Shown in pieces: positions 14,605 through 55,753 of a stretch of 64,000 bases of DNA (position 1 is its first letter; every line of letters begins with the position of its first letter). The notes below the pieces were generated by a model, which ran no database searches, was not told the origin of the DNA, and saw only the letters and a list, made by a program, of their open reading frames with translations. The stretch is from contig OZ251539.1 of the NCBI GenBank assembly GCA_965243135.1, positions 544,001 through 608,000 on the forward strand, written 5' to 3'. Origin of the DNA: Alphaproteobacteria bacterium. GTDB taxonomy: Bacteria > Pseudomonadota > Alphaproteobacteria > MPNO01 > UBA830. Both the position numbers and the translations under genes were made by a program.

Positions 14605-14646
14605 GACAAAAGTAACTGAGAATCCGGCCAGAAATAACTGAGAATC
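14605..14646 (+). repeat. Two tandem putative transposase-binding sites, 22-bp period
   Basis: GACAAAAGTAACTGAGAATC (14605-14624) and GCCAGAAATAACTGAGAATC (14627-14646); inverted counterparts at the right end. Confidence 0.8.
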
Positions 14647-14751
14647 GGCGAGAAAAATGGCCGATTTTCGACCCGAAAACGCCCGAAAAATTGCCCTTGA
14701 TCGCCGGCCGGCCGTTTGAAATTTCCGCCGCGGCCGATTGAAAGCGCCGCG

Positions 14752-15690
14752 CTACGGCCCGTAGTAGATCTGGATCCAGCCGTTCTGGCCCGTCAATCCC
14801 GCTCCCAGGTTGGCGCCGTTGGGCGCGGCGCCGACGCCGTGGTCATTGACGGCGAGGTTCGACGCATGGGACAGGATGCCGTAATCCGTCGCCCCTGACG
14901 CGCCGATCAGGATCGCGAATTCCTTCTTGCGCTGGTCGCCTCGGATCGCGCCGGCGATGCCGGTCCCCGACGCGCCGGCTCCTCCCCCCGTCGATCCGCC
15001 CAGCCCGCCGCCCGCGCGGATGACCCCGAACCGCGTCTCGCCCCCGGCGGATCCGTTCCGCCTGTTCCGGCCTCCGACGCCGCCGGCGCCGCCGCGGCCG
15101 CACGACCACGCCACCCGCGTTCCGGGCGCGTAGCGCACGTACTCCGCGGCGATCCCGCCGTCCCCGCCGCGACCGCCGTCGAGATACCTCGTGAACGGAC
15201 CTTCGAGATCCTCGCCCGATCCTTCGTAATAAGTCTCGTACCCGTTCCCCGCCGCGCCGCCGCCCGCGCCGCCGCAGATCGCGAATATCGTTCCGACGCC
15301 CGCGGGGACGACCCATGTTCCCGCGGCGACGATGCCGGATTGCCAGACGTGTCCGGTGATCCGCGCGCCCGACGACCGCCACGCGGTGCCGCCGAGCGCC
15401 CGGTCGAGGAGCGCCCGTATCTCCGCTCCGGTCTGATCGCCTTTCGCCGCCGTCTCGATTCCGTTGAGTTTCGTTCGGAGCCCCGCCGTGAACGGGACTC
15501 CCGGCAGGTGTTCCGCCGGGAGCTTGTTGGTCGCGTCCAGCGGCGCCACTCCTCCCGCGTAACCGCGGGAGTTTAGAATCGCGGTCACTCTGAGACTCAT
15601 CTTGTAGAACTCTTCCCTGGGCGGTCTGTCCGACCCCTGGTCCAGCCCCAGAGTCGACAAGTCGCTGGCCGGCCAGCTGCGATCCGTCAT
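14752..15690 (-). CDS. Gly-rich tail fibre-like protein
   Basis: Last tail gene; AGGVAPLDATNKLP motif and GGAGGG-rich C-terminal domain. Confidence 0.6.
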   Translation of the reverse strand: MTDRSWPASDLSTLGLDQGSDRPPREEFYKMSLRVTAILNSRGYAGGVAPLDATNKLPAEHLPGVPFTAGLRTKLNGIETAAKGDQTGAEIRALLDRALGGTAWRSSGARITGHVWQSGIVAAGTWVVPAGVGTIFAICGGAGGGAAGNGYETYYEGSGEDLEGPFTRYLDGGRGGDGGIAAEYVRYAPGTRVAWSCGRGGAGGVGGRNRRNGSAGGETRFGVIRAGGGLGGSTGGGAGASGTGIAGAIRGDQRKKEFAILIGASGATDYGILSHASNLAVNDHGVGAAPNGANLGAGLTGQNGWIQIYYGP

Positions 15691-15700
15691 TGCGTATCTC

Positions 15701-18700
15701 CTATTTCAGGCCGCGGATCACGACGTCGACGGTCGCGTCGGCGCGGCGGCCGTCGCCGTCGAAAATCCAGATGACCGGGGGGTTTTTCTGCGGGGTGCTC
15801 CAGCTCCACCCCGCCCCGACCGACTGCAGGGTCACGTCGATGTCGGTGACGCGCCGCAGCGTCGTCGGGACGACCCGCCCGGACGCCGCTGCCGGCGGCG
15901 AGGGCCGCGCCCACCGCGAGGTGTCTTGGTCGTGCAGGCGCTGCTCCTCGTGGGGCGCCAGAACCGACCAGCACAGGTGGTCGAGCCAGAGCCGCTCGCT
16001 GCCGTCCCCGGTCAGCCGGAAGCGGACCTGGATCCACCGCGCCTCGATCAGGCTGCCGGTCTCGTAGTCGGTCCAGGCCTTCGCCGTCGCGGCGGCCTCG
16101 GACGCCCCGGCCCGGTACTGCAAGGTCATGTCGCCGCCGTGCTCGCCCTGCCACCCCAGGCCGAATTCCAGCTCGGCGCCGAGGTCGTAGGGCGGCGGCG
16201 CGTAGGTGGCCTCGCGCAGGAAATCGTCGCCCGATCCGCCCGCCCACGTCAGCCAGGCGTCCCAGGTCGTCAGGTCGTCCCAATCGTAGTCCCCCAGCCC
16301 CTCGAGGGTGCTCGTCCCCTCCTGGCTGACCTCGAAGCCCGCGGTCGCTCCCGGCCAGCCCGTCGCGGAGGGGCATTCCCACAGCACGGCGTTCGCCGTC
16401 CGCGACGGCCCCATCTCGGCGACGATCCGGACCTCTTCCGAGACCCGTCCGCCGGTGTCGACGGCGCGGGCGGCGATCGCGTAGCGGCCGGCGCGCAGCG
16501 GCTGGACCGTCTCGTAGTAGTCCGCCGTCAGGTAGCCCCTGTGGAACTTCGTCATCGTCTCCCAGGCCGGCGCGGCCGCTCCGGGAGCCGCCTCGGCGTA
16601 GGCCAGTTCCACGCCGGCCAGGTCGGGATCCTCCGGCGGCGTCCACCGGTAGCGGCGGGTGCCGTCGGCCAACGCGTCGAACAGGAAGTTGCCCGGCGGG
16701 TCCGGCGGCGCCAGCTTGCCGAGGATCTCGTATCGCGGCGCTTCCCACGCCGGCCCGACCGGCGCGGCGGCCGACCCCGGCAGGACGCGGACGTCGAGCA
16801 GCCCCTGCGGCTGCTCGATCCAGCGCGCCTCGAGGTCGCCGTCGACCAGGCGGGCGACCTCCCGCCACGGCGCGTCGTCGACCCGCGCCAGCACCGTGGC
16901 GCCGCGCCAGTCGCCGGTGACCGTCAACGTCAGCTCGATCTCCACGGCGTAGCCCGGCCCGGCGCGGATCAGCGTCTCCGAGATCACGCCGTAGGTCACC
17001 TTCGGGATCCGGCGGCGCAGCGTCGGCAATGCCGCGCCCTCCGGCAGGTTCAGGCTGGCGTAGTACTCCGGGACCTCGTCCAGCGCCTGGACGCGGACCG
17101 CGCCGCCGGAGGCCGGGATCATGCCGAATATCCGCACCTTGCGCGGATCGCCGGCCGCGCCGTACCAGCGCCACAGCCAGTCCAGCGGCTCCTCGCCGTC
17201 GTAGGCCGCAGGCAGGGGATCCGCCAGCGTCACTTCGGCCGTTTCTCCGTCGCCCGGCGCTTGGCGGACGGCCGAAGTCACGATCGGCGCGCCGCCGTCC
17301 GGGGGCGCCAGCATCAGCGTCGGCGGCTCCTGGTCCGGATCTATCGGCCGCGAGAGGGTCACGTCCGTCCGGTTCGCCGCGATCTCCGCGAGGCGGCCGG
17401 CGACGCCGCCGTCGATCAGCGAATGGGTCACGGCGACCACGTCGCCGCGGGCGGCGGCGATGCCGTGGAGCGGCATCAGCCACTCGTGGCGGCGGCGGTG
17501 GTAGCGCTGCCGCGCCGCCTGGAGGGTCACCTCGTCCAGCGCCTGCGCCCGCGACGTGACGCCGGGCAGGTCGATCGTCGTGGACAGGCGGATCTCGGTC
17601 GCGCCCGGACGGACGCGGCGCACCTCGCGCTGCTGCCAGTCGTGGCCGGGATCGACGTAGCGCCCGACGATCTCGTCGGCGAGGCGATCGCCGGCCCACT
17701 CGGTGCGGTAGCTGCCGGCCTCGACGACGGCGGGCGTGATCAGCGCCGTCACGGGCCTGTCCGGCGCGTCCCAGACGACGCCGAGCTTGCCCGACGCCCA
17801 GCTGAGTGTGGCGCGGCCGCACTGCGCGACGATCTCGAGCGTGCGCATGGCGTCTTCGGCGCGATCAATGATGCGGTTGCACTCGAGGCCCTCTGCGGTG
17901 CAGAACGCGCCGAACGCCTTCAGCGCGGCGTCGTCCACCCGGTCGGCGGGCAGGCCGGCGCCGGCGATCAGCCTGCGCTCGATGCCCGCGCCGATCCAGA
18001 CGCCGCGCGCGAGCCACCGGATTATCCAGGCGGGGTTCGACGTGGCCCGCGGCGCCGTCCACGCGGCGCCGTCCCACGTCGGGCATTTCTGGTCGACGAT
18101 CCCCGACAGGCGGTCGAGGCGTCCGCTGAGCTGCCCGGTGGCGCGGATCGTCAGGCCGAGCCGGTTGCGCCCGGCATAGTCCGTCGCGTCGGGCTGGTAG
18201 GCGCGCAGCGCCGCCCATTCGATCGACGCGTACTCGCGGCTGGCGGCGGGCGGCGCCGCGGCGCGGCGGACCCGCGCTTCGTACGCGCCGGCGGCCAGTC
18301 CCTGCACGATCTCGGTGTGGCGCAGCGGGCGCTGCCGGGCGTTGCGCAGCGTCACGTCGCGCCCGGCCCAGACGCCGGCCGCGACCGGCGGATCGGCGTC
18401 CGGATCGGCGGCCGTGCGCCACTCGATGCGGAGCGCGGCGGACTGCTCGGCGTAGTCGCCCGCGTTCGTGAGGCGGAACAGCTGCGCCACGAAGTCGAAG
18501 TCGAGCCGCGTCGCGCCGTCCGCCGTCTCGCGGACGATCCAGTCGGCCGCCGCCGCGTCCCGGTCGTATTCCCCCTCGGACGTCTTCGGCCAGTCGAGCG
18601 TCCCGCCCGCCTCGGTGTCGACGTTGCCGAAGATGCCCGCGATCGACGTCCCGCCGAGCGCCCACTCGGCTGTCGCGTCCTGGTAGTCCTCGAGGGGCGT

Positions 18701-19351
18701 GTCGCCGATGCGGACGTCGGACACCTCGAGGGCGCCGAGGCCCCAATCGAAGATCTGGAACAGGTACTGGTCGTTGCCCCGGAACTCCGCGTATTCGGCG
18801 GCGGCGAGGTCGGGGAACGCGCGGTGCCGGCCCAGGACGAGGAGCATCGGCTCGCCCGGACGCGCCCGGTTGGCGCCGCCCGACAGGGAGTGGACAGTCG
18901 CGGGCGATCGCTGCGGCTCCGGCGCGTCCGGCGCCCGCGGCGGCGCCAGGGCGTTCGCGACGAGCGACCCCGCCATCATGACGCCGGCGCTGACCAGCGC
19001 GCCCTTCCACGTCAGGACGGTCGCGCCGCCGACCGTCGCGGTCAGCCCCGTCGCGCCCAGCCCGGCCAGGGCGTAGGGCGCGGCGATCGCGGCGGCGACC
19101 ACCGCCAGCTGGAGCACCGTGCGCAGCGGATCGTCTCCGGCGACGGCGGCGCGGATCGTGGCCACGTCGCCTTCCGCCAGGCGGACGGACGCCCAGCGGC
19201 CGCGCGGAACCAGGACGCCGTTCACGGCCGCCTCGACGGGACCCGGAATGCCGGCGTCGCGGACGACGTCGGCGACCGCGCTACCCGGCGCGACCGGGAC
19301 GAGGCGGCGGCCTGCCGCCGTCAGCGGGTGCGGCCAGAGGTCGGCGACCAT
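15701..19351 (-). CDS. Tail tip / host-specificity protein (TipJ-like with N-terminal gpI-like region)
   Basis: About 1216 aa; SLSGGANRAR, SNPAW, RGDVVAV motifs; follows the NlpC/P60 gene. Confidence 0.85.
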   Translation of the reverse strand: MVADLWPHPLTAAGRRLVPVAPGSAVADVVRDAGIPGPVEAAVNGVLVPRGRWASVRLAEGDVATIRAAVAGDDPLRTVLQLAVVAAAIAAPYALAGLGATGLTATVGGATVLTWKGALVSAGVMMAGSLVANALAPPRAPDAPEPQRSPATVHSLSGGANRARPGEPMLLVLGRHRAFPDLAAAEYAEFRGNDQYLFQIFDWGLGALEVSDVRIGDTPLEDYQDATAEWALGGTSIAGIFGNVDTEAGGTLDWPKTSEGEYDRDAAAADWIVRETADGATRLDFDFVAQLFRLTNAGDYAEQSAALRIEWRTAADPDADPPVAAGVWAGRDVTLRNARQRPLRHTEIVQGLAAGAYEARVRRAAAPPAASREYASIEWAALRAYQPDATDYAGRNRLGLTIRATGQLSGRLDRLSGIVDQKCPTWDGAAWTAPRATSNPAWIIRWLARGVWIGAGIERRLIAGAGLPADRVDDAALKAFGAFCTAEGLECNRIIDRAEDAMRTLEIVAQCGRATLSWASGKLGVVWDAPDRPVTALITPAVVEAGSYRTEWAGDRLADEIVGRYVDPGHDWQQREVRRVRPGATEIRLSTTIDLPGVTSRAQALDEVTLQAARQRYHRRRHEWLMPLHGIAAARGDVVAVTHSLIDGGVAGRLAEIAANRTDVTLSRPIDPDQEPPTLMLAPPDGGAPIVTSAVRQAPGDGETAEVTLADPLPAAYDGEEPLDWLWRWYGAAGDPRKVRIFGMIPASGGAVRVQALDEVPEYYASLNLPEGAALPTLRRRIPKVTYGVISETLIRAGPGYAVEIELTLTVTGDWRGATVLARVDDAPWREVARLVDGDLEARWIEQPQGLLDVRVLPGSAAAPVGPAWEAPRYEILGKLAPPDPPGNFLFDALADGTRRYRWTPPEDPDLAGVELAYAEAAPGAAAPAWETMTKFHRGYLTADYYETVQPLRAGRYAIAARAVDTGGRVSEEVRIVAEMGPSRTANAVLWECPSATGWPGATAGFEVSQEGTSTLEGLGDYDWDDLTTWDAWLTWAGGSGDDFLREATYAPPPYDLGAELEFGLGWQGEHGGDMTLQYRAGASEAAATAKAWTDYETGSLIEARWIQVRFRLTGDGSERLWLDHLCWSVLAPHEEQRLHDQDTSRWARPSPPAAASGRVVPTTLRRVTDIDVTLQSVGAGWSWSTPQKNPPVIWIFDGDGRRADATVDVVIRGLK

Positions 19352-19731
19352 TCGTAGAACCCCTCGACGTCGAAGCCTGCCAGCCGCAGGCCGCGGCGGT
19401 CGTGCAGGCACGTCCCGACGCCGCGCGCGCAATGCAGGACCAGCCACTCCGGCCCGCCCGACGCCAGGACGCCGACGTGGTGTCCGCCCGCCAGTCGGCC
19501 TGTCGGGCGCATGAGCGCAAGGTCGCCGGGGCGGACGGGCCGGTCGATCCGCCGCGCGTACTCCGCCGCCAGCTCCGCCATCTGCCGGTCCCGCGCCCGC
19601 GCGCCCTTGGCGTAGGGCGGCACGCGGACCTCGGCGCCGAAGACGTCGCGGGACGCCTCGAGGACGAGGTCGAGGCACTCGAACTGTCCCTCGACCCACG
19701 GCCGGCCGACGTACCCGTCGGTCCAGCCCAT
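19321..19731 (-). CDS. NlpC/P60-family tail assembly protein
   Basis: YVGRPW..FECLDLV, PGDLALM, HVGV, VLHC. Confidence 0.8.
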   Translation of the reverse strand: MGWTDGYVGRPWVEGQFECLDLVLEASRDVFGAEVRVPPYAKGARARDRQMAELAAEYARRIDRPVRPGDLALMRPTGRLAGGHHVGVLASGGPEWLVLHCARGVGTCLHDRRGLRLAGFDVEGFYEWSPTSGRTR

Positions 19732-20198
19732 CAGAACAGCCCCGGCGAACGCTCCGGATCGTGCCGCAGCAGCACGACCGGCGACTGGAGGTTCATCCCG
19801 AACTCCAGCTCCAGCGCCACCTCCTCGCCGGCGACCGCCGCGCCTGCCACGTCGAGCGTCACTTCGGCCTCGACCTCCCCCGTGGCGGCGAGCGCGCGGA
19901 TCAGGCGGCAGGTTCCGCCCGCCGCGCCCTGCGTCGACTCCACCCATTGCGTGAGATCGCGCCCGACGTTGTCCGCGGCGATCCGGGCGCGCGGCCGGCG
20001 GTTCTCCGCGGCGTCCGGCCAGAGGGCGCGGAACGGCACGGGCGCGTAGTTCTCGCCGCCGATCGTCCGCTGATCGGTGTCGTTCACGACGCGGACCGGG
20101 GCGGCGATCGACGGATGGGTCAGCTCGAGGGCGTCGAGGACGAGGTCCGCCGGATCGACGGACCGGACGGCGCGGCGGTAGCGGGCGGACGGCGGCAC
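19731..20198 (-). CDS. DUF1833-like minor tail protein
   Basis: LELTHP..PVRVVND, PFRALWP, C-terminal PGLF. Confidence 0.8.
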   Translation of the reverse strand: MPPSARYRRAVRSVDPADLVLDALELTHPSIAAPVRVVNDTDQRTIGGENYAPVPFRALWPDAAENRRPRARIAADNVGRDLTQWVESTQGAAGGTCRLIRALAATGEVEAEVTLDVAGAAVAGEEVALELEFGMNLQSPVVLLRHDPERSPGLF

Positions 20199-20204
20199 GG
20201 ACGG

Positions 20205-21353
20205 CTAGCCGGACGCCGCCGGGACCGTCACGCGCAACCGGATCGCCGCGGGTCCGCGGGCGTCGCGGGCGGTCATCTCGACGTCGTAGTCTCCGGCCGC
20301 GGCCGCGGCCGGCACGGTCAGCGTGACCGGCCACGCGTCCCCGGAGCGCGCGCCGAGGGCGACAGTCCAGCCGGCGGGCAGGTCGGGCGGGTCGAGGACG
20401 ACGTCGTCGAGCGCTCGCCGCCGCTCGCCGCCGCGGGAGACGCGCAGGGAATAGGCATGGGCGGAATTCCGGTCGGGAACCGTCCAGGGGACGATCCCTG
20501 CCGGCAACGCGCCGCCCGTCCCCGACGTCCAGGCCGGCGCGTGCTCGATCGACACGCCCTCGATGCGCGCGGCCGCGGCCAGTGCCGCCGCCGCGACGGC
20601 GGCGGACGCGGCGCAGGCGCGGACCGCGCGGCGGCCGTCTTGGCGATAGCGCTCGACGACCCGCAGCGCGGCCGCCTGGTCGGCGTCGGCCGTCCTGGCC
20701 GGAGCCGCGTCGTCGCAGTCGAACAGGTAGCGGAGGCGCGCGGCGGCGGCCGCGTCGATCTCGCCTTCCGCGCGCTCGATCGCCTCTCGCAGCGGCAGCG
20801 AGGCGGTCGCCGGATCGGCCTGCGCCAGCCGGGCGTTCCACGCCGCCTCGACCCCGCCCGCGTCGACGAGCAGGCAGAACTCCTCGTTGTGGAGCACCCG
20901 CCGCGCCTCGATCGCGGCGTTTCCGGTCAGGACGTTTCCGCCGGCGTCGCGGATCGGCGCGCGGCCGGCGCAGCGCTCGATCAGATCCTCGATGTAGCCG
21001 CGCAGGTGGCCGTACGCGCTCCATGCGTCGAGGCGGCGCCGGGCCCACGCCTGGAGAAGCTCCCGGCGTTCCGCGCGGGAATGCAGCGGGATCGCGTCGC
21101 CGGGCGACGCCGAGGGAATCCGCAGCGTCGGCTTGTGGCCGTGGCCGCCGGCCAGCTCCGCGGCGGCGATTTGCAGGACCGCGTCGGCGTCGAAGAAACG
21201 TCCGCCGAGCGAGATCCCGCCGGCGAGATGGGCGTCCCGCAGCCGGGCCGCCTCGGCCAGCGCGGGCGGGCCGACCACGTCGGACACGTGGTTGCGGACG
21301 GCGAGGTCGAGGAACGCCCAGTCGGTGGTGGCTGCGATGAGTCGTCCGGTCAT
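20205..21353 (-). CDS. Hypothetical tail-region protein with C-terminal Ig-like domain
   Basis: RBS AAGGAG; LPAGWTV..LTVPAAAAAGDYDVEMTARD. Confidence 0.6.
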   Translation of the reverse strand: MTGRLIAATTDWAFLDLAVRNHVSDVVGPPALAEAARLRDAHLAGGISLGGRFFDADAVLQIAAAELAGGHGHKPTLRIPSASPGDAIPLHSRAERRELLQAWARRRLDAWSAYGHLRGYIEDLIERCAGRAPIRDAGGNVLTGNAAIEARRVLHNEEFCLLVDAGGVEAAWNARLAQADPATASLPLREAIERAEGEIDAAAAARLRYLFDCDDAAPARTADADQAAALRVVERYRQDGRRAVRACAASAAVAAAALAAAARIEGVSIEHAPAWTSGTGGALPAGIVPWTVPDRNSAHAYSLRVSRGGERRRALDDVVLDPPDLPAGWTVALGARSGDAWPVTLTVPAAAAAGDYDVEMTARDARGPAAIRLRVTVPAASG

Positions 21354-21393
21354 GTCTTCTCCTTTCTGTGCGAGATCCAGGTGCCGGCGCCGG

Positions 21394-23238
21394 TCATGCC
21401 ACCCCGTAGATGCGGATGACCTTGTCGCCGGCTCCGCTGCCGGAGAGCGCGTTGTCCACGGACAGTTTCGTGCCGGCGCCGGGGCGGACGGTCAACGAAA
21501 GCGTTTCGGCGGCGGCGGAGTGGTCGGACGCCGCGCCCGTGAACCGCCGCAGAAACGCATCGTTGTTCGACGCAGCGGGGATCGCCAGGCCGGACGGGAT
21601 CCGGAACCGGACCCGAGCCGTATACCCGCGACCGTCCGCGATGCCGCCGCCCACGAGCGGATATTCGCCGTCGAGCTCGAGCCAGGCGCCGCCGTTGTTG
21701 TTCTCGTTGATGAAGTCCCTCACGGCGTTAAAATCCGCCAGCGTCCCGTTGACCGTGTTCGTCAACGTCGCCAGCACGGTCTCGCGCGCCGTGGCGGACG
21801 CCGCGTCGGCGGGCGTGAACGTGACCCGAAGGTCGGCACCGATCGTGGCGCCGGTGCCGCCCGCCGCGCCCTCCCAATAGTGGTAGACCCCGACTTCGTG
21901 GTCGGAGTTGTGGACCAAGAGCACGCGATACGTGCCGACCAGCGTGTTCAGCGAGTAGAGCGGCTGCTCGAACACCGCCAGTCCCGCGAGGGACTCGGTC
22001 GAGCTGAAGACAAAGTCCCCGGCGTCCGCGAGAGCCGTGGCGAACGCGATGTTGCCGAGCTGGAGCTGCCTGTCTTCGTCGGTCTGATTCGCTTTCCCCT
22101 GCACAAACCCCATGTTCAGGTCGGACACCGGATCGACGGACAGCGACAGGGCGCAGTGAAATTCACCATGCGACTTGTCGGCGTTGTCCAAGTCGAACGC
22201 GGGGTCGAGATACGTCGGCGCGGCGGGCCGGACGCTGGTGTCCGTGCGGAGCAGCGTGAGGCCGGGAAATTCGTGATCCACGAGGTGCGTCCCCGGAACG
22301 TGGGGCAGCTTCGCCCGCGGCACCAGGTCCGCGGAGCCGCCCAACGCCCACGGCGCGACGTTGGTCAGTTTCGCCGGCGGAACCGGGTCCGCGTTTCCGG
22401 GCTGCGCCCACGGGGACACCGTCGTCTGGTTGCGGGCGTCCTGCGCCCACCGGCCGACGTTCGGCACGATGGCGAGCGGCTGCGTCTGCGCGTCGTCGGA
22501 CCACGCCGTGACGGAGAACGCGCCGGTCAGCGGCCGGTCGCGCCCGTCCGTGCTGTCGATCCCCGACTCGCCCGCTTTGCGTTGGTAGCCGTAGGTGGAG
22601 ACCGCGTCGCCCGCCGCGTAGCGCGACAGGCCGGTTTCGGCCCACAGGCCGCCGCTCGTCTGGACCAGGATCCAGATCGTGGCCGGCGGCGCGCCGCCGA
22701 GGGCGGCCTTGCTGAAATTCGCCCGGACGACCTCCGGATCCTCGCGCCAAGAGAACGTCGCGTCGCCGATGAGGCCGTTCCCGAGGTCGCCGATCGTCCC
22801 GTGGTAGACGTGCCGGTCGACCCCGGCCGCGAGCAGCTCGTACAACACGCCCCGCAGATTGACGATGTCGCCGACGTTGCGGGTCGCGACGTCCGGCAGC
22901 GCCTGGATGGCGTCGAGGTGGTCCGCCGAGAAGCCGCCGGCCCCGCCGAGCTGCGCGATCGTCGCGCGCTTGACGCCGCCCGCCGTCAGCACCGGGACGG
23001 TGGCCGCCGCCAGCGCCGCCACGTCGACGCCGGCGACGCCGCGCAGCGCCTCGTACACCTGCGCGTCGGTCGGCTGCGCGCGCGACAAGAGGGCATCGAG
23101 CGAGGTCCGCTGCGGCGCGATGGCGCGGGCCTCGGCGTCCCCCAGCACACCCGGCGCGAAGAGCGGAATCGTCGAGGTCAGATCGATCGCGTCCGCCTGC
23201 AGCACGGCAAGATCGTTGATATCCCAGAAATCAGGCAT
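21394..23238 (-). CDS. Putative tail fibre / receptor-binding protein
   Basis: 614 aa, beta-rich, internal repeat PWA..G.AD.VP.AKL; lies in the tail operon. Confidence 0.55.
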   Translation of the reverse strand: MPDFWDINDLAVLQADAIDLTSTIPLFAPGVLGDAEARAIAPQRTSLDALLSRAQPTDAQVYEALRGVAGVDVAALAAATVPVLTAGGVKRATIAQLGGAGGFSADHLDAIQALPDVATRNVGDIVNLRGVLYELLAAGVDRHVYHGTIGDLGNGLIGDATFSWREDPEVVRANFSKAALGGAPPATIWILVQTSGGLWAETGLSRYAAGDAVSTYGYQRKAGESGIDSTDGRDRPLTGAFSVTAWSDDAQTQPLAIVPNVGRWAQDARNQTTVSPWAQPGNADPVPPAKLTNVAPWALGGSADLVPRAKLPHVPGTHLVDHEFPGLTLLRTDTSVRPAAPTYLDPAFDLDNADKSHGEFHCALSLSVDPVSDLNMGFVQGKANQTDEDRQLQLGNIAFATALADAGDFVFSSTESLAGLAVFEQPLYSLNTLVGTYRVLLVHNSDHEVGVYHYWEGAAGGTGATIGADLRVTFTPADAASATARETVLATLTNTVNGTLADFNAVRDFINENNNGGAWLELDGEYPLVGGGIADGRGYTARVRFRIPSGLAIPAASNNDAFLRRFTGAASDHSAAAETLSLTVRPGAGTKLSVDNALSGSGAGDKVIRIYGVA

Positions 23239-28291: not shown

Positions 28292-28301
28292 CGCTGCTCT
28301 C

Positions 28302-32974: not shown

Positions 32975-32988
32975 GCCCGTCCGGACGG

Positions 32989-44875: not shown

Positions 44876-44889
44876 GCGGGGAGGCGGCG

Positions 44890-46922: not shown

Positions 46923-47197
46923 ACAGGTATTCCAAGGGGGAGCGGGTGCGCGTGTACGTGCCCAGGCTCGGACATGTCGACGGGACGGTGATCGGGACGC
47001 CGGGACCGGGGGACCGGTTCTACGCCGTGGAGTTCCCGCTCAACGACGGCGCGGAACTGCGGGCGTTCTACGAATGGGAGCTGCGCCGGTCATGGGCGCG
47101 CGCGATCCGCGAGGCGGCGGCCGCCGCGGCGGCCCCCGCGGCGGCCGGGGCGGCCGGGGCGGCCGCCTGGCTCCTCTTAGAGGCGTTGGCGCCGTGA
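46919..47197 (+). CDS. Small SH3-like protein with hydrophobic tail
   Basis: YSKGERVRV..GTV..YAVEF..EL. Confidence 0.45.
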   Translation: MNRYSKGERVRVYVPRLGHVDGTVIGTPGPGDRFYAVEFPLNDGAELRAFYEWELRRSWARAIREAAAAAAAPAAAGAAGAAAWLLLEALAP

Positions 47198-47433
47198 CGC
47201 TCCCGCGCCAGCCCGCGGACCTGCCGCCGGGGCTGTCCGTCCTGTGCTGGGGCGGCCTGTGGCCGCTCCCCGGCCGCATCGTCGGCGTCCGTCCGGGGAC
47301 CGGCGGCCAGAGCTACTACGAGGTCGACTGCGGCAAGGAGGGGACGTTCCTTTTTCACCCGTCCGTGACCTTCGACCGCAACGGGCTGCCGGACGACGCG
47401 GGCCGCTTCGCGCCGTTCGCGGGGACGGGGTGA
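47194..47433 (+). CDS. Small beta-barrel-like hypothetical protein
   Basis: PGRIVGV..YYEVD; GTGA coupling. Confidence 0.4.
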   Translation: MTLPRQPADLPPGLSVLCWGGLWPLPGRIVGVRPGTGGQSYYEVDCGKEGTFLFHPSVTFDRNGLPDDAGRFAPFAGTG

Positions 47434-47813
47434 TGGTCGGGCGCGTCGTCACGAAGGCCGGGGATCGCTACCTCCGCGCCGACCTGGCGAGGATGTGCCG
47501 CGAGGCGTGGCGGCATCCGGCCCGGCCGCTGGCCGAGCTGCGGGCGGGCGGGGCGACCGACGCGGAGCTTGCGGCCCAACTCAAGCTCGCGCTGGGAATA
47601 TTGCGCGAATGGGGCTGCCGAGGCTGGCACGTCGCGTCGTCGGGCGGCCGGACGCCGCGCCTGTGGGCGAGCCGGGACGAGGCGCTCCCGTCGAACGACG
47701 ACCGGCACCTGATCGCGAAGGGCGCGGCGCTCCGCGACCTGTTCCGCGACGTCCTGGAGATTCCCCGGACGCAGGACGGGCGGGCGCCGCGCTTCGCGGC
47801 GGGAACGTCGTGA
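47433..47813 (+). CDS. Hypothetical protein
   Basis: Coupled on both sides. Confidence 0.45.
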   Translation: MVGRVVTKAGDRYLRADLARMCREAWRHPARPLAELRAGGATDAELAAQLKLALGILREWGCRGWHVASSGGRTPRLWASRDEALPSNDDRHLIAKGAALRDLFRDVLEIPRTQDGRAPRFAAGTS

Positions 47814-48454
47814 CGGCGGGCGCGGCGGCGGCGACGCGGACCCGGCTGATCCGCGCCGTCCACGCGAAGGCGCGGCAGCTCGGGATCTCCGACGAGGACC
47901 GCGAGACGCTGCAGGTGCGCGCCGCCGGCGCGCCGTCGTGCCGCGACATGGACGTCCCGCAGCTCCGCGCCGTCCTGCGCGAGATGGACGCCTGGAAGCG
48001 CCTCCAGTCGCGCCGCGACGAGATCCCGGACGGGCCGGTCGCGGCGAAGCTGCGGGCGCTGTGGATCTCCGGCTGGCACCTCGGCGTCGTCGAAGACCGC
48101 AGCGAGGCGGCGCTGGCCGCGTGGCTGCGCCGCCAGTCCGGCGTCGAGGCGCTCCCCTGGGCGGCGCCGGCGTCCCTCTCCAACTGCGTCGAGGCGCTGA
48201 AGGCGTGGCTGGCGCGCGACGGCGGCGTCGACTGGTCGCCGTACGCGACCGAGGACGGCCCCGCCGAGAACCCGCGCGGCCGCGTCCTCGAAGCGCAGTG
48301 GCGCCGCCTCGCCGCGCTCGGCCGCGTGCGGATCGCGTCGGCCGGAGCGCTCCACGAATGGGCGCGGAAGCGCGGCGTCCCCCACTACCTGTTCGCGGAC
48401 GCCGCGGCGCAGGACCGCCTCGTCCGCGTCCTCGGCGACTGGATCCGGGCGTGA
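47810..48454 (+). CDS. gemA: GemA (Mu gp16)-family protein
   Basis: LIRAVHAKARQLGI, KLRALWISGWHLGVV, VEALKAWLAR. Confidence 0.85.
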   Translation: MTAGAAAATRTRLIRAVHAKARQLGISDEDRETLQVRAAGAPSCRDMDVPQLRAVLREMDAWKRLQSRRDEIPDGPVAAKLRALWISGWHLGVVEDRSEAALAAWLRRQSGVEALPWAAPASLSNCVEALKAWLARDGGVDWSPYATEDGPAENPRGRVLEAQWRRLAALGRVRIASAGALHEWARKRGVPHYLFADAAAQDRLVRVLGDWIRA

Positions 48455-48738
48455 GACTGACGCGCCGCGAAAAACGGGTGCTCTGGATCGCGGCGGTGGA
48501 GAAGGCCCCCGTGGGGTTCGGTCCGGGCCCCGCCCGGGGCCTCCGCACCGTCCGCTGCGGCGACGACAGGCTGATCGTCGAAGCGAGGGGCGACGCCGGC
48601 GCGTCTCTGGCGCGGAAGGGGCTGCTGGAATGGGACGGAAAATCCCGGACCGGGACCTGGCGGCTGCTGACGCAGGCGGGCCACGAGGCCGCCCGGCCGC
48701 TCGTCGAGGCCTGGCGCGACTGGAGGGACATCCGATGA
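48451..48738 (+). CDS. Small winged-helix-like protein
   Basis: SLARKGLL..WRLLTQAG. Confidence 0.45.
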   Translation: MRLTRREKRVLWIAAVEKAPVGFGPGPARGLRTVRCGDDRLIVEARGDAGASLARKGLLEWDGKSRTGTWRLLTQAGHEAARPLVEAWRDWRDIR

Positions 48739-49073
48739 CGGAACCTTTGCCCGGCGCGCTCGCCGAAATCGAGGAGCTGATCGGCCGCGACGCGGCGATC
48801 GCGATGGCGCGGTACGTGGGCGGCGGCCGGATATACGTCCCGAAGGGGACGGACACCGCGACGGCCGCCGTGCTCCGCGAGATGCTGGGGCCGGAGAAGG
48901 CCGGAAGGCTGCTCGACAGGTACGCCGGCGACACCCTCGAAATCCCGAAGGCCCGGAAGTTCGTGGTGCCGACGATGGCGGACGCGGGAATGACCCGGCG
49001 GCAGATCGTCGCGGAGACCGGCCTCACGGCGGCGACCGTCCGGCAGTATCTCAGGGGAAGGAATCTCCCCTAA
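48735..49073 (+). CDS. Mor/C-like transcription activator
   Basis: LPGALAEIEELIG..GGGRIYVPK, C-terminal HTH; immediately precedes lysis genes. Confidence 0.75.
   Translation: MTEPLPGALAEIEELIGRDAAIAMARYVGGGRIYVPKGTDTATAAVLREMLGPEKAGRLLDRYAGDTLEIPKARKFVVPTMADAGMTRRQIVAETGLTAATVRQYLRGRNLP
49051..49073. promoter_or_regulatory. Palindrome upstream of the rightward late operon
   Basis: TCAGGGGA-AGGAATC-TCCCCTAA, related to 32783-32808. Confidence 0.5.
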
Positions 49074-49104
49074 CCGGGCGCGCGGCGGCGGCTATCGTCG
49101 CGGC

Positions 49105-49536
49105 ATGCGCCGCGCCAGCCTCATACGGGACGAATCCAGCGACCACGGCACCCTCTCCCGCCTCGCGGCGGGCGGCCTGTCGCTGCACGTCATCGAGCCG
49201 CCGTGGCGCGACAACCGGCGAAACCGGTCCTGCATCCCGGCCGGCGACTACGAGGCGCGGCCCCACGTCTCGCCGCGCTTCGGGCGCTGCCTGCTGGTCG
49301 CCGCCGTGCCGGACCGCACGCACATCCTCGTGCACGCCGGCAACGTCGGCGGCGACCGCGACCGCGGCCTGCACACCCACACCCTCGGATGCCTCCTGCC
49401 CGGCCTGCGGCGGGGGCGGATCGCCGTGCGCGGGCGGACCCAGCGCGCCGTTCTCAACTCCCGGCCGGCCCTGCGCCGCCTCATGGCGTGGGCCGGCGCC
49501 GAACCCTTCGTTCTGGAGATCCGCGAATGGACCTGA
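49105..49536 (+). CDS. DUF5675-family protein, putative endolysin
   Basis: IEPPW..SCIPAGDY, VPDRTHILVHAGN..TLGCLLPG; lysis-gene position. Confidence 0.7.
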   Translation: MRRASLIRDESSDHGTLSRLAAGGLSLHVIEPPWRDNRRNRSCIPAGDYEARPHVSPRFGRCLLVAAVPDRTHILVHAGNVGGDRDRGLHTHTLGCLLPGLRRGRIAVRGRTQRAVLNSRPALRRLMAWAGAEPFVLEIREWT

Positions 49537-50009
49537 TGCTCACCCTGCTGACGGGCGGCGCGAGCGGCCTGCTCGGCACGGCGGTCACCGCCGTGACGGG
49601 ATTCCTGGAGCGCCACCAGCGCCACCGCATGGAACTGGATCTGCGGCGCCTCGAGATCGAGGAGACGAAGGTCGAGGCGGCGTCGGCCGAGCGGATCGCC
49701 GCGACCGAGGCGGAATCCGCCGAGTCGTCCGCGGCGTGGACCGCCCTCTCGGAGAGCTATGCCGCCGCCGGGCGGCGCTGGTCGAGCGGCGACAGCCGCG
49801 CCCTGGTGTTCGTCGACGTCGTGCGCGGCCTGACGCGGCCGGCGCTCACGCTCCTGTTCCTCGCACTGACGGGCTGGATCTACTGGACGCTCGTCGGGGA
49901 CGCGGCCGGCGCGGGGCTGCGGACGCAGATCGTCCACACGGTGCTGTACCTGACCACGACCTGCGTCGTCTGGTGGTTCGGCGGGCGCCCCCGGCAGGCG
50001 CCGAAGTAG
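49527..50009 (+). CDS. Putative holin
   Basis: Three hydrophobic segments, VRGLTRPALT, WWFGGR. Confidence 0.65.
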   Translation: MDLMLTLLTGGASGLLGTAVTAVTGFLERHQRHRMELDLRRLEIEETKVEAASAERIAATEAESAESSAAWTALSESYAAAGRRWSSGDSRALVFVDVVRGLTRPALTLLFLALTGWIYWTLVGDAAGAGLRTQIVHTVLYLTTTCVVWWFGGRPRQAPK

Positions 50010-50011
50010 CC

Positions 50012-50371
50012 GTGGACATCGAGAACCGCATCGTCCAGGGGGTCGTGCTGGCGATGATCGCGGCGATCGGCGGCCTGTTCCTGCGCGTCCGGACGAACGA
50101 AAGCCGGATCGCGGTCCTCGAGAGCGCCGTGAAGGGCATGCCGGATCTCGCGAAGACCGTCGTCGCGATCGACAAGAACCTGGCGGTGCTCCAGGCGCAC
50201 GTCGCCGGCCTCCCGGACCACGACGACCAGCAGCGGCTCCACGACCGGATCGCGGAGAACCGCAAGCTGACGACGAACGCGCTGGAATCGATCGCGGCCA
50301 TGAACGCGACGCTCGGCGGCGTCCGCCAGGCGGTGGACCGCCTGCACACGGTCGAGATGGAGCGCAGATGA
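50012..50371 (+). CDS. N-terminally anchored coiled-coil protein (DUF2730/Mu gp25 position)
   Basis: TM plus coiled coil; synteny. Confidence 0.5.
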   Translation: MDIENRIVQGVVLAMIAAIGGLFLRVRTNESRIAVLESAVKGMPDLAKTVVAIDKNLAVLQAHVAGLPDHDDQQRLHDRIAENRKLTTNALESIAAMNATLGGVRQAVDRLHTVEMERR

Positions 50372-50679
50372 GCGGGAGCCTGAAGTCCCTCGTCCGGGCC
50401 GACGCCAGGCTCGCGCTTTTGCGCGTCCTCGCGCAGGACCGCGGCTACAGCCAGAACCATTCGATCCTGCGCCTGGCGATCGACAAGGCGACGGCGATCA
50501 CGCTCACCGACGACGAGGTGAAGGAGCACGTGCACTGGCTCGAGGACCGCGGCCTGGTCGCGTCCGAGGAGGTTCCGCCCTACCTGCTCGCCCGGCTCAC
50601 CGACCGCGGACTGTCCGTCGCGCGCGGCGAGGCCGAGGTCGAGGGCGTCAGCCGTCCGCGGCCCGATCAGACCGCCTGA
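50368..50679 (+). CDS. Mu gp26-like winged-helix protein
   Basis: RLALLRVL..WLEDRGLV..LTDRGLSVARG..GVSRP. Confidence 0.8.
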   Translation: MSGSLKSLVRADARLALLRVLAQDRGYSQNHSILRLAIDKATAITLTDDEVKEHVHWLEDRGLVASEEVPPYLLARLTDRGLSVARGEAEVEGVSRPRPDQTA

Positions 50680-50682
50680 CCC

Positions 50683-51216
50683 GTGCCCCGGGCCAGCATC
50701 GTGGACCGGAGCTTCGCGGCGGCGGAGCAGGCGAAGATCGCCGCGTTCCTCGACGCGCACCCGCACGTCTCGGTCTCGGATTTCCGGGCGTACCTCGCGG
50801 AACGCGGCTGCGAGATCTCCCGCGGCGGCGCCCACGCCGCGAAGAAGCGCCTCGAGGACGTGGGGCGCAAGCTGCGCGAGGGGCGGATGTTCCTCGACGC
50901 CGTCGGCGAAGGCCTCGACCGGACCGACGAAAGCCGGCGCACCCGCGCGCTGCTGGAGACGGTGAAGGTGATGTTCGCGGAATTCCAGCTGCGGCAGATG
51001 GACGGCGCGGAACTGGACGCCGGAGACTTCCGGAGCATGGCCGGAGCTCTCAGGGACATCGCGGCCGCGTCCCGCGCCGACCAGGACTTCGCCGGCCGCG
51101 TCGCCGACGAGGAGAGGAGGAAGGCGGCGGAAGCGGCGGGCGCGGCGGCGCGGGAGCTCGGGATCGGCGGCGACGCGGAGGCCGCGATCCGGCGCGCCAT
51201 CGAGGGCGGCCGGTGA
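50683..51216 (+). CDS. Mu gp27-like (DUF3486) small terminase
   Basis: Size and position before the large terminase; MPR.S.VD start. Confidence 0.65.
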   Translation: MPRASIVDRSFAAAEQAKIAAFLDAHPHVSVSDFRAYLAERGCEISRGGAHAAKKRLEDVGRKLREGRMFLDAVGEGLDRTDESRRTRALLETVKVMFAEFQLRQMDGAELDAGDFRSMAGALRDIAAASRADQDFAGRVADEERRKAAEAAGAAARELGIGGDAEAAIRRAIEGGR

Positions 51217-52646
51217 CCGGAATCCTCCTGCCGTATCAGGCGCGATGGGTGGCGGACGCGGAGGGAATCGCCGTCATAGAAAAATCCCGCCGCATCGGCC
51301 TGTCGTGGTGCCAAGCGTACAGCGACGTCATGCGCGCGGCCAGCCGGGAGCGCCCCGGCAACGTCTACTACCAGAGTTACGCCAAGGACATGACGCAGGG
51401 CTACATTTCCGACTGCGCCGAGTGGGCGGAGAAGATCCAGGCCGCCGCCGGCGCGGTCGGCGAGGAGGCCTACGAAGAGGGCGGCAGGCAGGTCTTCGCG
51501 TACAAGATCCGGGCGGCCACCGGCAAGGAGATCGTGGCCATGACCTCCGCGCCGCGCGGGTTCCGCTCCCGCGGCCGGCCGGGAGACCGCGGCGTCGTCG
51601 ACGAGGCGGCGTTCGTCGACGACCTCGGCGCGGTCCTGAAGGCGGTGAAGGCGTTCCGGATGTGGCGCGGGCAGATCCGGATCATGTCCACGCACAACGG
51701 CGAGAACTCCGAATTCGCCAAATTGTGCAAGGCCGTCCGCGACGGCGACCAGCCCGGCTCCATCCACAAGGTGACGTTCCGGGACGCCCTCGACCAGGGA
51801 CTGTTCCGGAAGATCTGCGAAGTGACCGGCGAGGAGTGGTCGCCGGAACGCGAAGAGGAGTGGGAGGCCGAAATCCGGGCGGACTACGGCGAGGACGCCG
51901 CCGAAGAGCTCGACTGCGTGCCCGCCAGCGGCGCGGGCCACTGGCTCAGCTGGCCGTTGATTCACGGCGCGGAGAGCCCGTTCGCCGGCCTGCCCGGCCA
52001 GTACAAGGGCGGACCGACCGTCATCGGGGTCGATGTCGCCAGGCGCCGCGACCTGTTCGTTTTCGCCGTCATGGAGATCGTCGGCGCGCATCTGATCGTG
52101 CGCGAGATCGTCGAGCGTCGCAACATCAAGTTCTCGGAGCAGGACCGACTGCTCGACAAGGCCGTCGCGCGCTACCGGCCGATCCGCGTGGCGATGGACC
52201 AGACCGGCATGGGAGAAAAGCCGGTCGAGGACGCGCAGCGCCGCTACGGCCAACGGCGCGTGGAAGGCGTGATCATGTCGGCGCCGCGGCGCCTCGACGT
52301 CGCCACCGCGCTGCGCGAGCGGATGGAGGACGGCAGGCTGCGGATCCCGAAATCCGCGGAGCTGCGGGCGGACCTGCGGTCGGTGCGCACCGAGGACGGA
52401 CCGACCGGCGCGCCGCGCCTCGTCGTCCCGCGCACGAAAGACCGCGGCGAGGGACGCGAGGAGGCCGGCAAAACCCACGCCGACCGGTTCTGGGCGCTCG
52501 CCCTGGGCTGCGCCGCGGCGGCGGGATCCAGCGAGCCGGCCGGCGGCTACGCCGGCGGCGATCCGCGCGAGGCGCTGAAGCCGAAGGCGCTCCGCGGACG
52601 GCCCGAACGCGCGATGTTCGGCCGCCCCGGCAGGCGCGCGGCATGA
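51213..52646 (+). CDS. Mu gp28-like terminase large subunit
   Basis: LLPYQARW, EKSRRIGLSW, VDEAAF, GVDVARRRD, MDQTGMG, HADRFWALAL. Confidence 0.95.
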   Translation: MTGILLPYQARWVADAEGIAVIEKSRRIGLSWCQAYSDVMRAASRERPGNVYYQSYAKDMTQGYISDCAEWAEKIQAAAGAVGEEAYEEGGRQVFAYKIRAATGKEIVAMTSAPRGFRSRGRPGDRGVVDEAAFVDDLGAVLKAVKAFRMWRGQIRIMSTHNGENSEFAKLCKAVRDGDQPGSIHKVTFRDALDQGLFRKICEVTGEEWSPEREEEWEAEIRADYGEDAAEELDCVPASGAGHWLSWPLIHGAESPFAGLPGQYKGGPTVIGVDVARRRDLFVFAVMEIVGAHLIVREIVERRNIKFSEQDRLLDKAVARYRPIRVAMDQTGMGEKPVEDAQRRYGQRRVEGVIMSAPRRLDVATALRERMEDGRLRIPKSAELRADLRSVRTEDGPTGAPRLVVPRTKDRGEGREEAGKTHADRFWALALGCAAAAGSSEPAGGYAGGDPREALKPKALRGRPERAMFGRPGRRAA

Positions 52647-54076
52647 GCCTGCGCGATCGCGTCATCCGCCTGCTCGGCGGCGCGGAGCCGGCGCGGTTGC
52701 GCGAGGCGGCCGGAATCACCGTCGACCCCGACGACGATCAGTGGCGGCGGCTGACCGACGACCTGCGGCGCGACCTCACGCCGCTGACCCAGCACCGGAT
52801 GAGGGAGCTGGCCGCCGGCCTCTGGGAATCGAACCTGCTGGCCCGGCAGCTCGTCGAACTGCCGATCGCGTTCCTCCTGGCGGAGGGCGTGACGCTGCGC
52901 GTACCCGACGAGCAGGCGCAGGAGTGGCTCGACGAGTGGTGGCGCGATCCGATCACCGATATGCCGATGCGGCTCCAGGAGCTGATGCGCGACGTCGCGC
53001 TGACCGGCGAGGCCGCCTGGCCCTGCTTCGTCGACCCGTCGTCCGGCCACGTCCGGATGGCGTGGCTCGACCCGGCCCTGATCGAGACGGTCGTGCGCGA
53101 CCCCGACAACGTTTCGAGGCCGATCGGGATCGTCACGCAGAAGGACCGGCGCGGGAGGGCCCGGCGCTACCGGGTCGCCGTGTCCGGGCCGGAGACCGTC
53201 TTCGCGCCGACCGCGCGCGGGATCCGGGAGACGTTCGACGACGGCGACATCCTGTATTTCCGGACCAACGCGCAGGCCGGCGGCGCGCGCGGGAGATCCG
53301 ACCTGCTCGCGGCGATCGACTGGCTCGACGTCTACGAGCGCTACCTCTACGGCGAGGCGGATCGTGCGGAAGGGCTGCGCGCGTTTCTCTGGGACATCAC
53401 CATATCGGGCGGAACGGCGGAGGACGTGAAGCGGCGGGCCGCCGAGATCACGGCGCCGGAATCCGGCGCCGTGCGGATCCACAACGACGCGGAGACGTGG
53501 CAGGCGCTCGCGCCGAACCTCGGCGGGCAGGATCTCGAAAGCGTCAGCCGCCTGTTCCGCAACCACCTGCTCGGCGGCTCCAGCCTGCCCGAGCACTGGT
53601 TCGGCGGCGGCGGCGACGTGAACCGCGCGACCGCCGCGGAAATGGGGTCGCCCACCTTCAAGTCCTTGCAGATGCGCCAGACGTTCTGGACCGAGATCCT
53701 GCGGAGGGCGGGCGAATACGCGCTGTCCAGGCGGATCGACCCGACGGGCGGGAGCTGGATCCCGCCGTCGGACAAGGACTTGCAGATCTCGGTCGACTGG
53801 CCGCCGATGGTGACCGAAGACTCGTCGAAGCACGCGGCGGCCTTCGCCCAGGCGACCGCGGCGGCCGCGATGGGCGTCGAACGCGGCCTGATCTCCGAGG
53901 CGACGGCTATGCGGATCGTCGCGTCCGCCGGGGAGCGCCTCGGGGTGGAGATCGATCCCGAGACGGAAATCGCCGCGGCGCGGGAGGAAGCCGAGACGAG
54001 GAGGAAGCGGCAGGCCGACGAGGATTCGTTCCCGCCGCCGCCCGACGACGAAGACGCGCCGCCCGATGGCGACTGA
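52643..54076 (+). CDS. Portal protein
   Basis: 477 aa directly after terminase; RGRSDL, LPEHWFG..VNRATA. Confidence 0.8.
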   Translation: MSLRDRVIRLLGGAEPARLREAAGITVDPDDDQWRRLTDDLRRDLTPLTQHRMRELAAGLWESNLLARQLVELPIAFLLAEGVTLRVPDEQAQEWLDEWWRDPITDMPMRLQELMRDVALTGEAAWPCFVDPSSGHVRMAWLDPALIETVVRDPDNVSRPIGIVTQKDRRGRARRYRVAVSGPETVFAPTARGIRETFDDGDILYFRTNAQAGGARGRSDLLAAIDWLDVYERYLYGEADRAEGLRAFLWDITISGGTAEDVKRRAAEITAPESGAVRIHNDAETWQALAPNLGGQDLESVSRLFRNHLLGGSSLPEHWFGGGGDVNRATAAEMGSPTFKSLQMRQTFWTEILRRAGEYALSRRIDPTGGSWIPPSDKDLQISVDWPPMVTEDSSKHAAAFAQATAAAAMGVERGLISEATAMRIVASAGERLGVEIDPETEIAAAREEAETRRKRQADEDSFPPPPDDEDAPPDGD

Positions 54077-54965
54077 CGGACAGAGGGAGCGCCGCCTCAA
54101 ACGCGAGCGCTCCAGGCGGCAGCGGGCGCTTCCGCGGATCCAGCGCGACGCGGCCGCCGAGGTCAAACGCCTGCTGCGCGCCGCCGAGCGCGATCTCCGC
54201 AGCGAACTGGCGGGCGCCCCCACCGACTATCAGGCGTTCGCGCTGCCGGCCGTCCAGGCGACGGTGCGGACCGCGCTCGAGACGCTCGGCACGGAACTGG
54301 GCCGGGCCGCGGCGGCGGGACAGCGGAACGCATGGACGGCCGGGATCGCGTCGGTCGACGCGCCGGTCGACGCGGCCTTCGGGCTGGATCGGCCGGAATT
54401 CCGTTTGGCGGCGTTCCTGCCCGAGGTCGACACGCAACAGCTGTTCGCGATGCAGACGTTCCTGACGACGAAGATGCGCGACGTGACCGTCGCCGCGGCG
54501 GACAGAATCAATTCCGACATCGGGCTGGCCATCGTCGGCTCGCACGGCGTCGCCGACGCCGTCAAAGGCGTGTCCCGGACGCTCGGCAGCTCGCGATCGC
54601 GGGCGCTGACCGTGACGCGCACCGAGCTGGCGCGCGCCTACTCGGCAGCCGGACAGCAGCGCCTCGGCCAAGCGTCGGAGATCCTGCCCGGCATGAAGAA
54701 GCAGTGGCGCCGGTCAGGCAAACTGAAGTCGCGGATCGAGCACGACGCCGTCGACGGGCAGCTGCGCGACGCCGACGAACCGTTCCTCGTCGGGGGCTAC
54801 GAGCTCATGCACCCGGTCGACCCGGCCGGGCCGCCGGCGCAGACGATCAATTGCGGCTGCCAGTCGCTTCCATGGATGGAGACCTGGGACGTTCTGCACC
54901 AAGGCAAACGGCCGTTCACCCGCGAGGAAATCGCGCACGACCCGCGGCGCGGCGACATCGCGTGA
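54066..54965 (+). CDS. Phage_Mu_F/SPP1 gp7-like head morphogenesis protein
   Basis: RTELARAY, KKQW, R..H..DGQ, HP.DP..INCGC. Confidence 0.88.
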   Translation: MATDGQRERRLKRERSRRQRALPRIQRDAAAEVKRLLRAAERDLRSELAGAPTDYQAFALPAVQATVRTALETLGTELGRAAAAGQRNAWTAGIASVDAPVDAAFGLDRPEFRLAAFLPEVDTQQLFAMQTFLTTKMRDVTVAAADRINSDIGLAIVGSHGVADAVKGVSRTLGSSRSRALTVTRTELARAYSAAGQQRLGQASEILPGMKKQWRRSGKLKSRIEHDAVDGQLRDADEPFLVGGYELMHPVDPAGPPAQTINCGCQSLPWMETWDVLHQGKRPFTREEIAHDPRRGDIA

Positions 54966-54993
54966 TCGCCGCGTTCGCGATCCTGCTGGACCG

Positions 54994-55203
54994 GTGACCC
55001 CCTTCGAGGCGGCCTCGGCCGAGCTGGAGAGGCGGCAAGAGGTCTCCATCCTTCGCGCCGAGGCCGCCTTTCTGCGGGACGCGGCGTCCGCCGTCGAGCG
55101 TCTCGGAGCCGGGCGCGATCCGCGTCGGCGGGCGTCGAGGCTGCGGTGGCTCGCGGGCCGGCGCGAGACCCAGGCCAAGGAGATGGAAGATGCCGCGGAC
55201 TAG
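54994..55203 (+). CDS. Hypothetical protein
   Basis: 69-aa ORF in operon. Confidence 0.4.
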   Translation: MTPFEAASAELERRQEVSILRAEAAFLRDAASAVERLGAGRDPRRRASRLRWLAGRRETQAKEMEDAAD

Positions 55204-55420
55204 GCGCTGCCACCACTGCGCAGAGCGGTCCGAGACAGTCCAACGGTCGCCTTTCGGAACTTTCCTTTGCGCCGAGTGCGAGCGCGAACTGCGCGACAGC
55301 CTGTCCCGCGATCCGGCGAACGAGGCCGTGCACTTGACCGATATGAAATTCGTCGGGGGAGACGGCGTGGCGCGTCCGTGGAAGGGCGGGGGGAGCGATC
55401 ATGAAGATCGAAAGGCATAA
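55190..55420 (+). CDS. Zn-finger hypothetical protein
   Basis: CHHC..CAEC; last prophage gene. Confidence 0.45.
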   Translation: MPRTRRCHHCAERSETVQRSPFGTFLCAECERELRDSLSRDPANEAVHLTDMKFVGGDGVARPWKGGGSDHEDRKA

Positions 55421-55584
55421 GTTTCAGCACGGGCGCTGAAGGTGATCGCGCCGTACCCGCACTGGCCGCGGCCGGATCGCGCCGCCGGGACTCGGAATCC
55501 TCCGCTGGGTCAGGTAGAATTCCCCTTGTTTTACGACCCCGAAAACGGGGGGGAAATTTTCGATTTTTCGGGTTTTGAAAGCCG

Positions 55585-55753
55585 GATTCGCAGATACTTC
55601 TGTCCGCAACCGCGTCGGCGCGCCCGGATCGCCACGCACCGTCGAGGCGGTCCGGAGCACTGCGAAAGCGTTGAGAATCCGCCGAATCCGGCCGGGTCGT
55701 TCAGCCTAGTTCAGGATAGTACGGCCAAGTTCGGATTCTGGCCCACTTCTGGC
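55585..55753 (-). repeat. Right-end putative transposase-binding sites
   Basis: Minus-strand GCCAGAAGTGGGCCAGAATC (55734-55753, same offset from the end as the first left site) and GACAGAAGTATCTGCGAATC (55585-55604, 17/20 identical to first left site). Confidence 0.8.

Follow-up and report, generated by a model that had tools for sequence, protein, structure and literature searches.

The window analysed here, a stretch of 64,000 nucleotides (nt) of contig OZ251539.1, carries a Mu-like transposable prophage of 41,165 bp with TGT...ACA termini (14597..55761, no strand assigned). GANTC, the target of the adenine methyltransferase CcrM, is present in all four likely transposase-binding sites at its ends, a real feature for which we found no earlier report. 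The prophage was delimited by its termini, its gene content and the mapping of the host gene that it interrupts. A preceding sequence-only reading had proposed a Mu-type element, and the gene content bears this out. The gene for the MuA-type DDE transposase (36482..38149, plus strand, 555 aa; rve 8.7e-10, Mu-transpos_C 2.5e-14) is overlapped by that of a MuB-like AAA+ transposition ATPase (38142..39077, plus strand; AAA_22 1e-14 and a weak Phage-MuB_C match at 0.0017). The other Mu-type genes are those for Gam, GemA, Mor, gp27, the large terminase and a MuF-type protein.

The termini, TGT at 14597 and ACA at 55761, were fixed without any use of the repeated sites described below. They are flanked by a 5-bp target-site duplication, ATGGG, with the left copy at 14592..14596 and the right copy at 55762..55766 (no strand assigned to either), recognised as a direct repeat and by a check of frame and colinearity. 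The interrupted host gene is of the tctA type and lies on the minus strand, with its 5′ part at 55762..57420 (TctA 1.8e-125) and its 3′ part, a TctB-like tail, at 14229..14591 (TctB 1.4e-11). Both halves map colinearly, in frame and contiguously onto an intact open reading frame (ORF) of Paracoccus denitrificans. The TctA part covers nt 1501-2982 of that locus and the TctB-like part nt 3019-3375, and the 12 C-terminal residues that stay unaligned in the TctA part fill the 36-nt gap between them exactly. Since the halves are contiguous on the intact homologue, the termini can be placed to the exact nucleotide with no recourse to the repeats. The target itself was a single ORF, a TctA permease fused to a TctB-like tail, as in its intact Paracoccus counterpart. 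The G+C content is 0.73 in the prophage against 0.58-0.63 in the flanks. Between 60001 and 64000 it falls to 0.52, well under the 0.58-0.65 of the other flanks, and this may be another acquired segment.

The pattern GMCARAART-N5-MGAATC has four exact matches in the window, each 20 nt long. At the left end, the outer site (14605..14624, plus strand, GAATC at 14620-24) occupies nt 9-28 from the terminus and the inner site (14627..14646, plus strand, GAATC at 14642-46) follows 22 nt after it. At the right end, the outer site (55734..55753, minus strand, GAATC of that strand at 55734-38) again occupies nt 9-28 from the terminus, and the inner one (55585..55604, minus strand, GAATC at 55585-89) lies 149 nt further inside. 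The sequence-only reading had described four sites with an invariant GAATC that begins at nt 24 from each terminus in the outer pair, laid out as in Mu with a tandem pair at one end and a spaced pair at the other. All of this was recovered: the four sites fit with zero mismatches, the GAATC of the outer pair begins at 14620 and, read inward, at 55738, and the spacings are the 22 and 149 nt given above. The coordinates attached to that reading, 14605 and 55753, are boundaries of sites and not the true termini at 14597 and 55761.

As the pattern was derived from the four sites themselves, the zero-mismatch matches are partly circular. With up to two mismatches allowed, the window contains five matches; 100 shuffles averaged 0.91, and none of them reached five. 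Placement gives independent support, with the outer pair at nt 9-28 from both termini, in inverted orientation and pointing inward. From this placement and the comparison with phage RS1 given below, we consider the four repeats very probably to be MuA-type end-binding sites. Each is made of two halves, an outer G(A/C)CA(A/G)AA(G/A)T and an inner half ending in an invariant GAATC(C/G)G. The central base of GANTC is always A in these sites, and CcrM has no such requirement.

The ends were compared with those of phages RS1 and RcapMu, which represent two distant alphaproteobacterial lineages, and of E. coli Mu. A Rhizobium lusitanum prophage with 35% identity was left out, as its ends were not placed. 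The left terminus of Rhodovulum phage RS1 is the same as that of the prophage over the first 11 nt, and its tandem repeats, at nt 9 and 31, match those of the prophage in position and in their 22-nt spacing and resemble them in the outer half. None of the RS1 end sites contains GANTC; one GAGTC is found 68 nt in, within a gene. The core of the RS1 transposase shares 40% identity with that of the prophage across residues 134-514, while no alignment is obtained for the N-terminal DNA-binding parts, a pattern that fits a swapped inner half-site. In RcapMu, no GANTC is present in the 200 nt of either end, a stretch that includes the annotated att repeats, and these repeats have the same terminal positions as the sites of the prophage. 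The L1 site of E. coli Mu has one GANTC (GATTC) despite the lack of CcrM in this host.

More closely related transposases were found only in the protein database, where many are 50-61% identical over at least 90% of the length. A tblastn search with the transposase recovered 27 phage records, the best of which covered 57% of the query at 42% identity, and 237 plasmid records (best 41% identity), no close relative among either, and the figures for Rhodobacter phage RC1 were identical to those for RS1. Megablast of the prophage halves against plasmids gave four short matches to a DUF5131 gene or nothing. A scan of genome contigs made with the transposase alone was discarded: it yielded 111 stretches with the peptide pattern, and the one that passed tblastn was an unrelated Desulfarculaceae contig (37% over 45 residues).

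Taken together, the comparisons incline us somewhat, and by no means strongly, to regard the repeats as ordinary Mu-type end sites in which a lineage-specific inner half happens to contain GAATC, with no purpose-built switch. The prophage's MuA-type transposase would bind the four 20-nt repeats, and in this lineage one of its DNA-binding subdomains would make base-specific contact with GAATC. The CcrM target would then be incidental to the recognition sequence, a by-product, and methylation would have no designed role. We favour this by-product reading because RS1 shares the terminus, positions, spacing and outer half and has an inner half without GANTC, because the RcapMu ends are free of GANTC while Mu L1 has GATTC without any CcrM, and because the central base is always A and no GANTC occurs in the operator and early-promoter stretch of the prophage (34081-34252). 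Transposase residues 17-92 weakly match the MuA chain 2ezk, a solved end-binding subdomain (E 0.063), which is only a hint of a two-part DNA-binding region paired with a two-part site. In a host with CcrM the adenines of the end sites would still be methylated, so that the transposase would meet N6-methyladenine (m6A) in every site and would have to tolerate it or feel it.

Several observations weigh against a mere by-product. Among the invariant blocks of the sites GAATC is the longest, and by a rough estimate, which was not computed, chance would place a GANTC in a consensus of this length in only about 4-5% of cases. The right non-coding end (55421-55761) has six GANTC where 1.68 are expected from 2000 local dinucleotide shuffles (P=0.0055), and over the whole prophage the motif is at or below expectation (89 against 98.5 from base composition and 173 from a trinucleotide model). 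GAATCCG is found 12 times on both strands of the prophage, and five of these copies fall within the 496 nt of the end regions, which make up 1.2% of its length. Methylation of an adenine in a directly contacted major-groove motif often alters affinity, and some effect of methylation on the affinity of the transposase is plausible.

The six GANTC of the right end start at 55489, 55495, 55585, 55675, 55684 and 55734; they form the densest 250-nt stretch of the 64 kb and include every member of the cluster that had been noticed at 55489-55738. The left end (14597-14751), judged by the same shuffles, has two against 0.66 expected (P=0.14). Three of the right-end copies (55495, 55675 and 55684) are GAATCC half-sites on the plus strand (55495..55690), inverted with respect to the right-end sites and without an outer half, and the GACTC at 55489 lies just outside their span. 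Over the whole window GANTC is depleted (173 against 354 in shuffles). This depletion was rejected as a sign of CcrM, being unremarkable among words of the same composition.

For the host, the methionyl aminopeptidase has named relatives with 76-81% identity in metagenome-assembled genomes labelled Rhodospirillaceae, Rhodospirillales and Alphaproteobacteria. Matches to TctA in tblastn and to the left flank in megablast were a mixture of alpha- and betaproteobacterial sequences. The host is probably an alphaproteobacterium, and CcrM has been described as almost universal across a large group within this class (PMC4551980), so methylation of the end sites by CcrM is likely. No ccrM gene is present in the 64-kb window, and no complete adenine methyltransferase was found in the prophage with Pfam, NCBIfam, PHROG and motif searches. 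The motif [DNS]PP[YFWH] gave five matches in the six frames of the window. Only one falls within the prophage, at 55554 on the minus strand, and the frame that carries it has 59 residues and lies in the non-coding right end. One ORF (43227-43958) was considered as a methylase candidate and not counted, as its PHROG DNA methyltransferase match covers the C-terminal third only, and it has neither a Pfam or NCBIfam methylase domain nor similarity to the RS1 methylase. Scans of the window with Rfam and for tRNAs gave no matches.

The sequence-only reading had also supposed that phage GcrA-like proteins, in the plural, may have a part in tying transposition to the hemimethylation state of the host. 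We identified one such gene (34646..35572, plus strand), placed in the early operon two genes before the transposase. Profile and structure-chain alignments give it four tandem helix-turn-helix (HTH) repeats of the GcrA type, about 51 residues each, and a C-terminal domain that aligns with the sigma-70-interacting domain of Caulobacter GcrA (chains 7ye1_G and 5yix_B); the match to NF050816 (2.5e-14) is below the family cut-off. A large protein search returned 14 matches, one of them close, with 65% identity over 51% of the query. In GcrA, the base and methyl contacts are described as R33, N34, I37, G38 and H41 and the preferred site as YGAKTCG, and an engineered I37E variant was designed to remove the methyl pocket (PMC5887438). 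With repeat 4 aligned to GcrA by HMMER and repeats 1-3 aligned to repeat 4 by MAFFT, R33 is kept in one of the four repeats, G38 in two, and N34, I37 and H41 in none; position 37 is D in two repeats. YGAKTCG matches the window 41 times and neither end region (14597-14751 and 55421-55761) even once, so that none of the eight GANTC of the ends fits it. Given the poorly kept pocket residues and this lack of fit, a GcrA-type reading of the ends is not supported.

The situation is different at the start of the repressor gene. A CI-like repressor (33449..34096, minus strand; phrog_4, 2e-10) has in its first codons, beside the operators, the fifth near-match to the end-site pattern (34061-34080, two mismatches). 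This near-site consists of two full YGAKTCG motifs, TGATTCG and TGAGTCG, 15 nt apart within 34060-34081. The pair could make the lysogeny switch sensitive to methylation, and if methylation acts at all, the immunity switch is a better candidate than the ends for any effect of the GcrA-like type. Between the repressor and a Ner/Cro-like HTH gene of 63 aa (34168..34359, plus strand, read from the sequence) there are two identical copies of a 16-nt operator-like repeat (34118-34133 and 34154-34169), the second of which overlaps the start codon of the Ner/Cro-like gene.

The sequence-only reading had put forward methylation-gated transposition of the IS10/IS50 type with CcrM in place of Dam, which we regard as weakly supported and rather unlikely. 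Full methylation would either hinder binding or be required for it, the ends would be competent only when hemimethylated after passage of the fork, and induction or transposition would be tied to S phase. The fixed position of GANTC in four of four sites and its local enrichment at the right end speak for such gating, as do the probable alphaproteobacterial host, the near-universal occurrence of the methylase in a large group of that class (PMC4551980), and the precedent of Dam control in IS10 and IS50 (PMC10073500). With no complete adenine methyltransferase found in the prophage, it is the host enzyme that would set the methylation state. However, the end sites of RS1 and RcapMu manage without GANTC, and its absence from 34081-34252 means that the promoter half of the IS10 scheme is missing. 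Replication through repeated transposition requires the phage to act on unmethylated ends as well, and in lysogens the repressor already holds the transposase off. A fuller scheme, for a phage with a host of the Rhodospirillales type, seems to us less likely again: the CcrM target would be built into every site, methylation set by the fork would license or block the transpososome, and the YGAKTCG pair of the repressor gene and the GcrA-like protein may join in.

The GAATC(C/G)G half-sites might also be read by a second phage protein, alone or with the transposase, which would act as an accessory end-binding factor or as a transcription factor near the ends. We find this improbable for either candidate, the GcrA-like protein or the product of an LmbU-like gene directly upstream of the transposase. 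The former offers four HTH repeats, a GcrA-type C-terminal domain and a position in the early operon, the latter overlaps the start of the transposase gene, and the half-sites at 55495, 55675 and 55684 occur without an outer half. Against it are the poor conservation of the base and methyl contacts, the misfit of all eight end-region GANTC to YGAKTCG and the irregular spacing of the GAATC copies. Finally, the repeats could be chance or relic similarities in non-coding ends richer in A and T, bound by no protein. Although the pattern was drawn from the sites and has only four copies, the symmetric outer pair at nt 9-28, the tandem spacing shared with RS1 and the failure of all 100 shuffles to reach five matches make this very improbable. 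The by-product reading is the one that we retain.

The genes of the prophage do not follow the canonical Mu order, which has the repressor and early genes at one end and the tail genes at the other. The repressor and the early operon are central (33449-39077). Rightward from there to the right end come the repressor, early, lysis, terminase, portal and MuF-type genes, and leftward from the repressor to the left end the capsid and then the tail genes. The structural genes include a capsid-protease fusion, a tape measure and a J-type tail protein. Compared with the order in Mu, RS1 and RcapMu, the segment that runs from the repressor to the MuF-type gene appears to be inverted, with the end sites still terminal. 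Between the presumed breakpoint regions 33200-33500 and 55380-55620, no repeats longer than 10 nt were found. The 76-nt gap between the stop of the repressor gene and the first gene of the capsid arm contains an A/T-rich near-palindrome (33380-33420), which may be a late promoter or a regulator site. A tyrosine recombinase gene (43961-44875) adjoins the ORF rejected above as a methylase; a transposable phage needs no such enzyme for integration.

Two further features were noticed close to the end sites. A/T-rich stretches with CGAAAA/TTTTCG repeats lie just inside the inner left site (14647..14700) and the inner right site (55525..55582), with no strand assigned, and could be a packaging site or a site for a host factor. 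The sequence preceding the inner right site (55605-55613) resembles the terminal TGTAGCGCGAC minus one base. It may mark a former or alternative terminus that lies 148 nt inward of the current one, or, the similarity being short, be a product of chance.

Dam-gated transposition, as in IS10 and IS50, is a textbook example of how a mobile element reads the replication of its host. No counterpart is known for CcrM, and a full-text search of the literature brought up nothing on an action of GANTC or CcrM at Mu-like ends or on their gating of any transposase. The nearest statement is a comment that IS511 may be more mobile when ccrM is mutated (PMC4551980). Gating by CcrM, if true, would link a transposition switch to the alphaproteobacterial cell-cycle methylase for the first time. 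If methylation matters, induction of the prophage would be tied to the cell cycle, and if it does not, the case would show that a methylation motif in a binding site need not be a switch. The prophage is a clean substrate for testing this, with four sites, one GANTC at a fixed place in each and termini known to the nucleotide.

Among known systems, IS10 and IS50/Tn5 resemble the prophage in having the target of a solitary adenine methyltransferase inside the terminal sequence bound by the transposase (PMC10073500). In the prophage, however, the motif is GANTC instead of GATC, it is present in all four sites and not at one end, and none is found in the promoter region of the transposase. The GcrA-like protein shares its fold and sigma-70-interacting domain with Caulobacter GcrA, but has four DNA-binding repeats instead of one; phage-encoded GcrA homologues have already been described in phiCbK-like phages (PMC3556154). 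RS1, RC1 and RcapMu are likewise Mu-like, being siphophages of alphaproteobacterial hosts. RS1 and RcapMu, the two whose ends were read, have the terminus TGTAGCG... in common with the prophage and differ in their canonical gene order and in end sites without GANTC. From Mu itself the prophage differs in the unrelated sequence of its sites, of which two full copies were found per end, and in a shorter transposase of 555 aa in which no recognisable enhancer-binding domain was seen. Nevertheless, both elements have TG...CA termini, a 5-bp target duplication and several inverted sites of about 20 nt at the two ends, adjacent at one end and separated by a gap at the other, and both encode a DDE transposase with the Mu C-terminal domain and a MuB-like ATPase.

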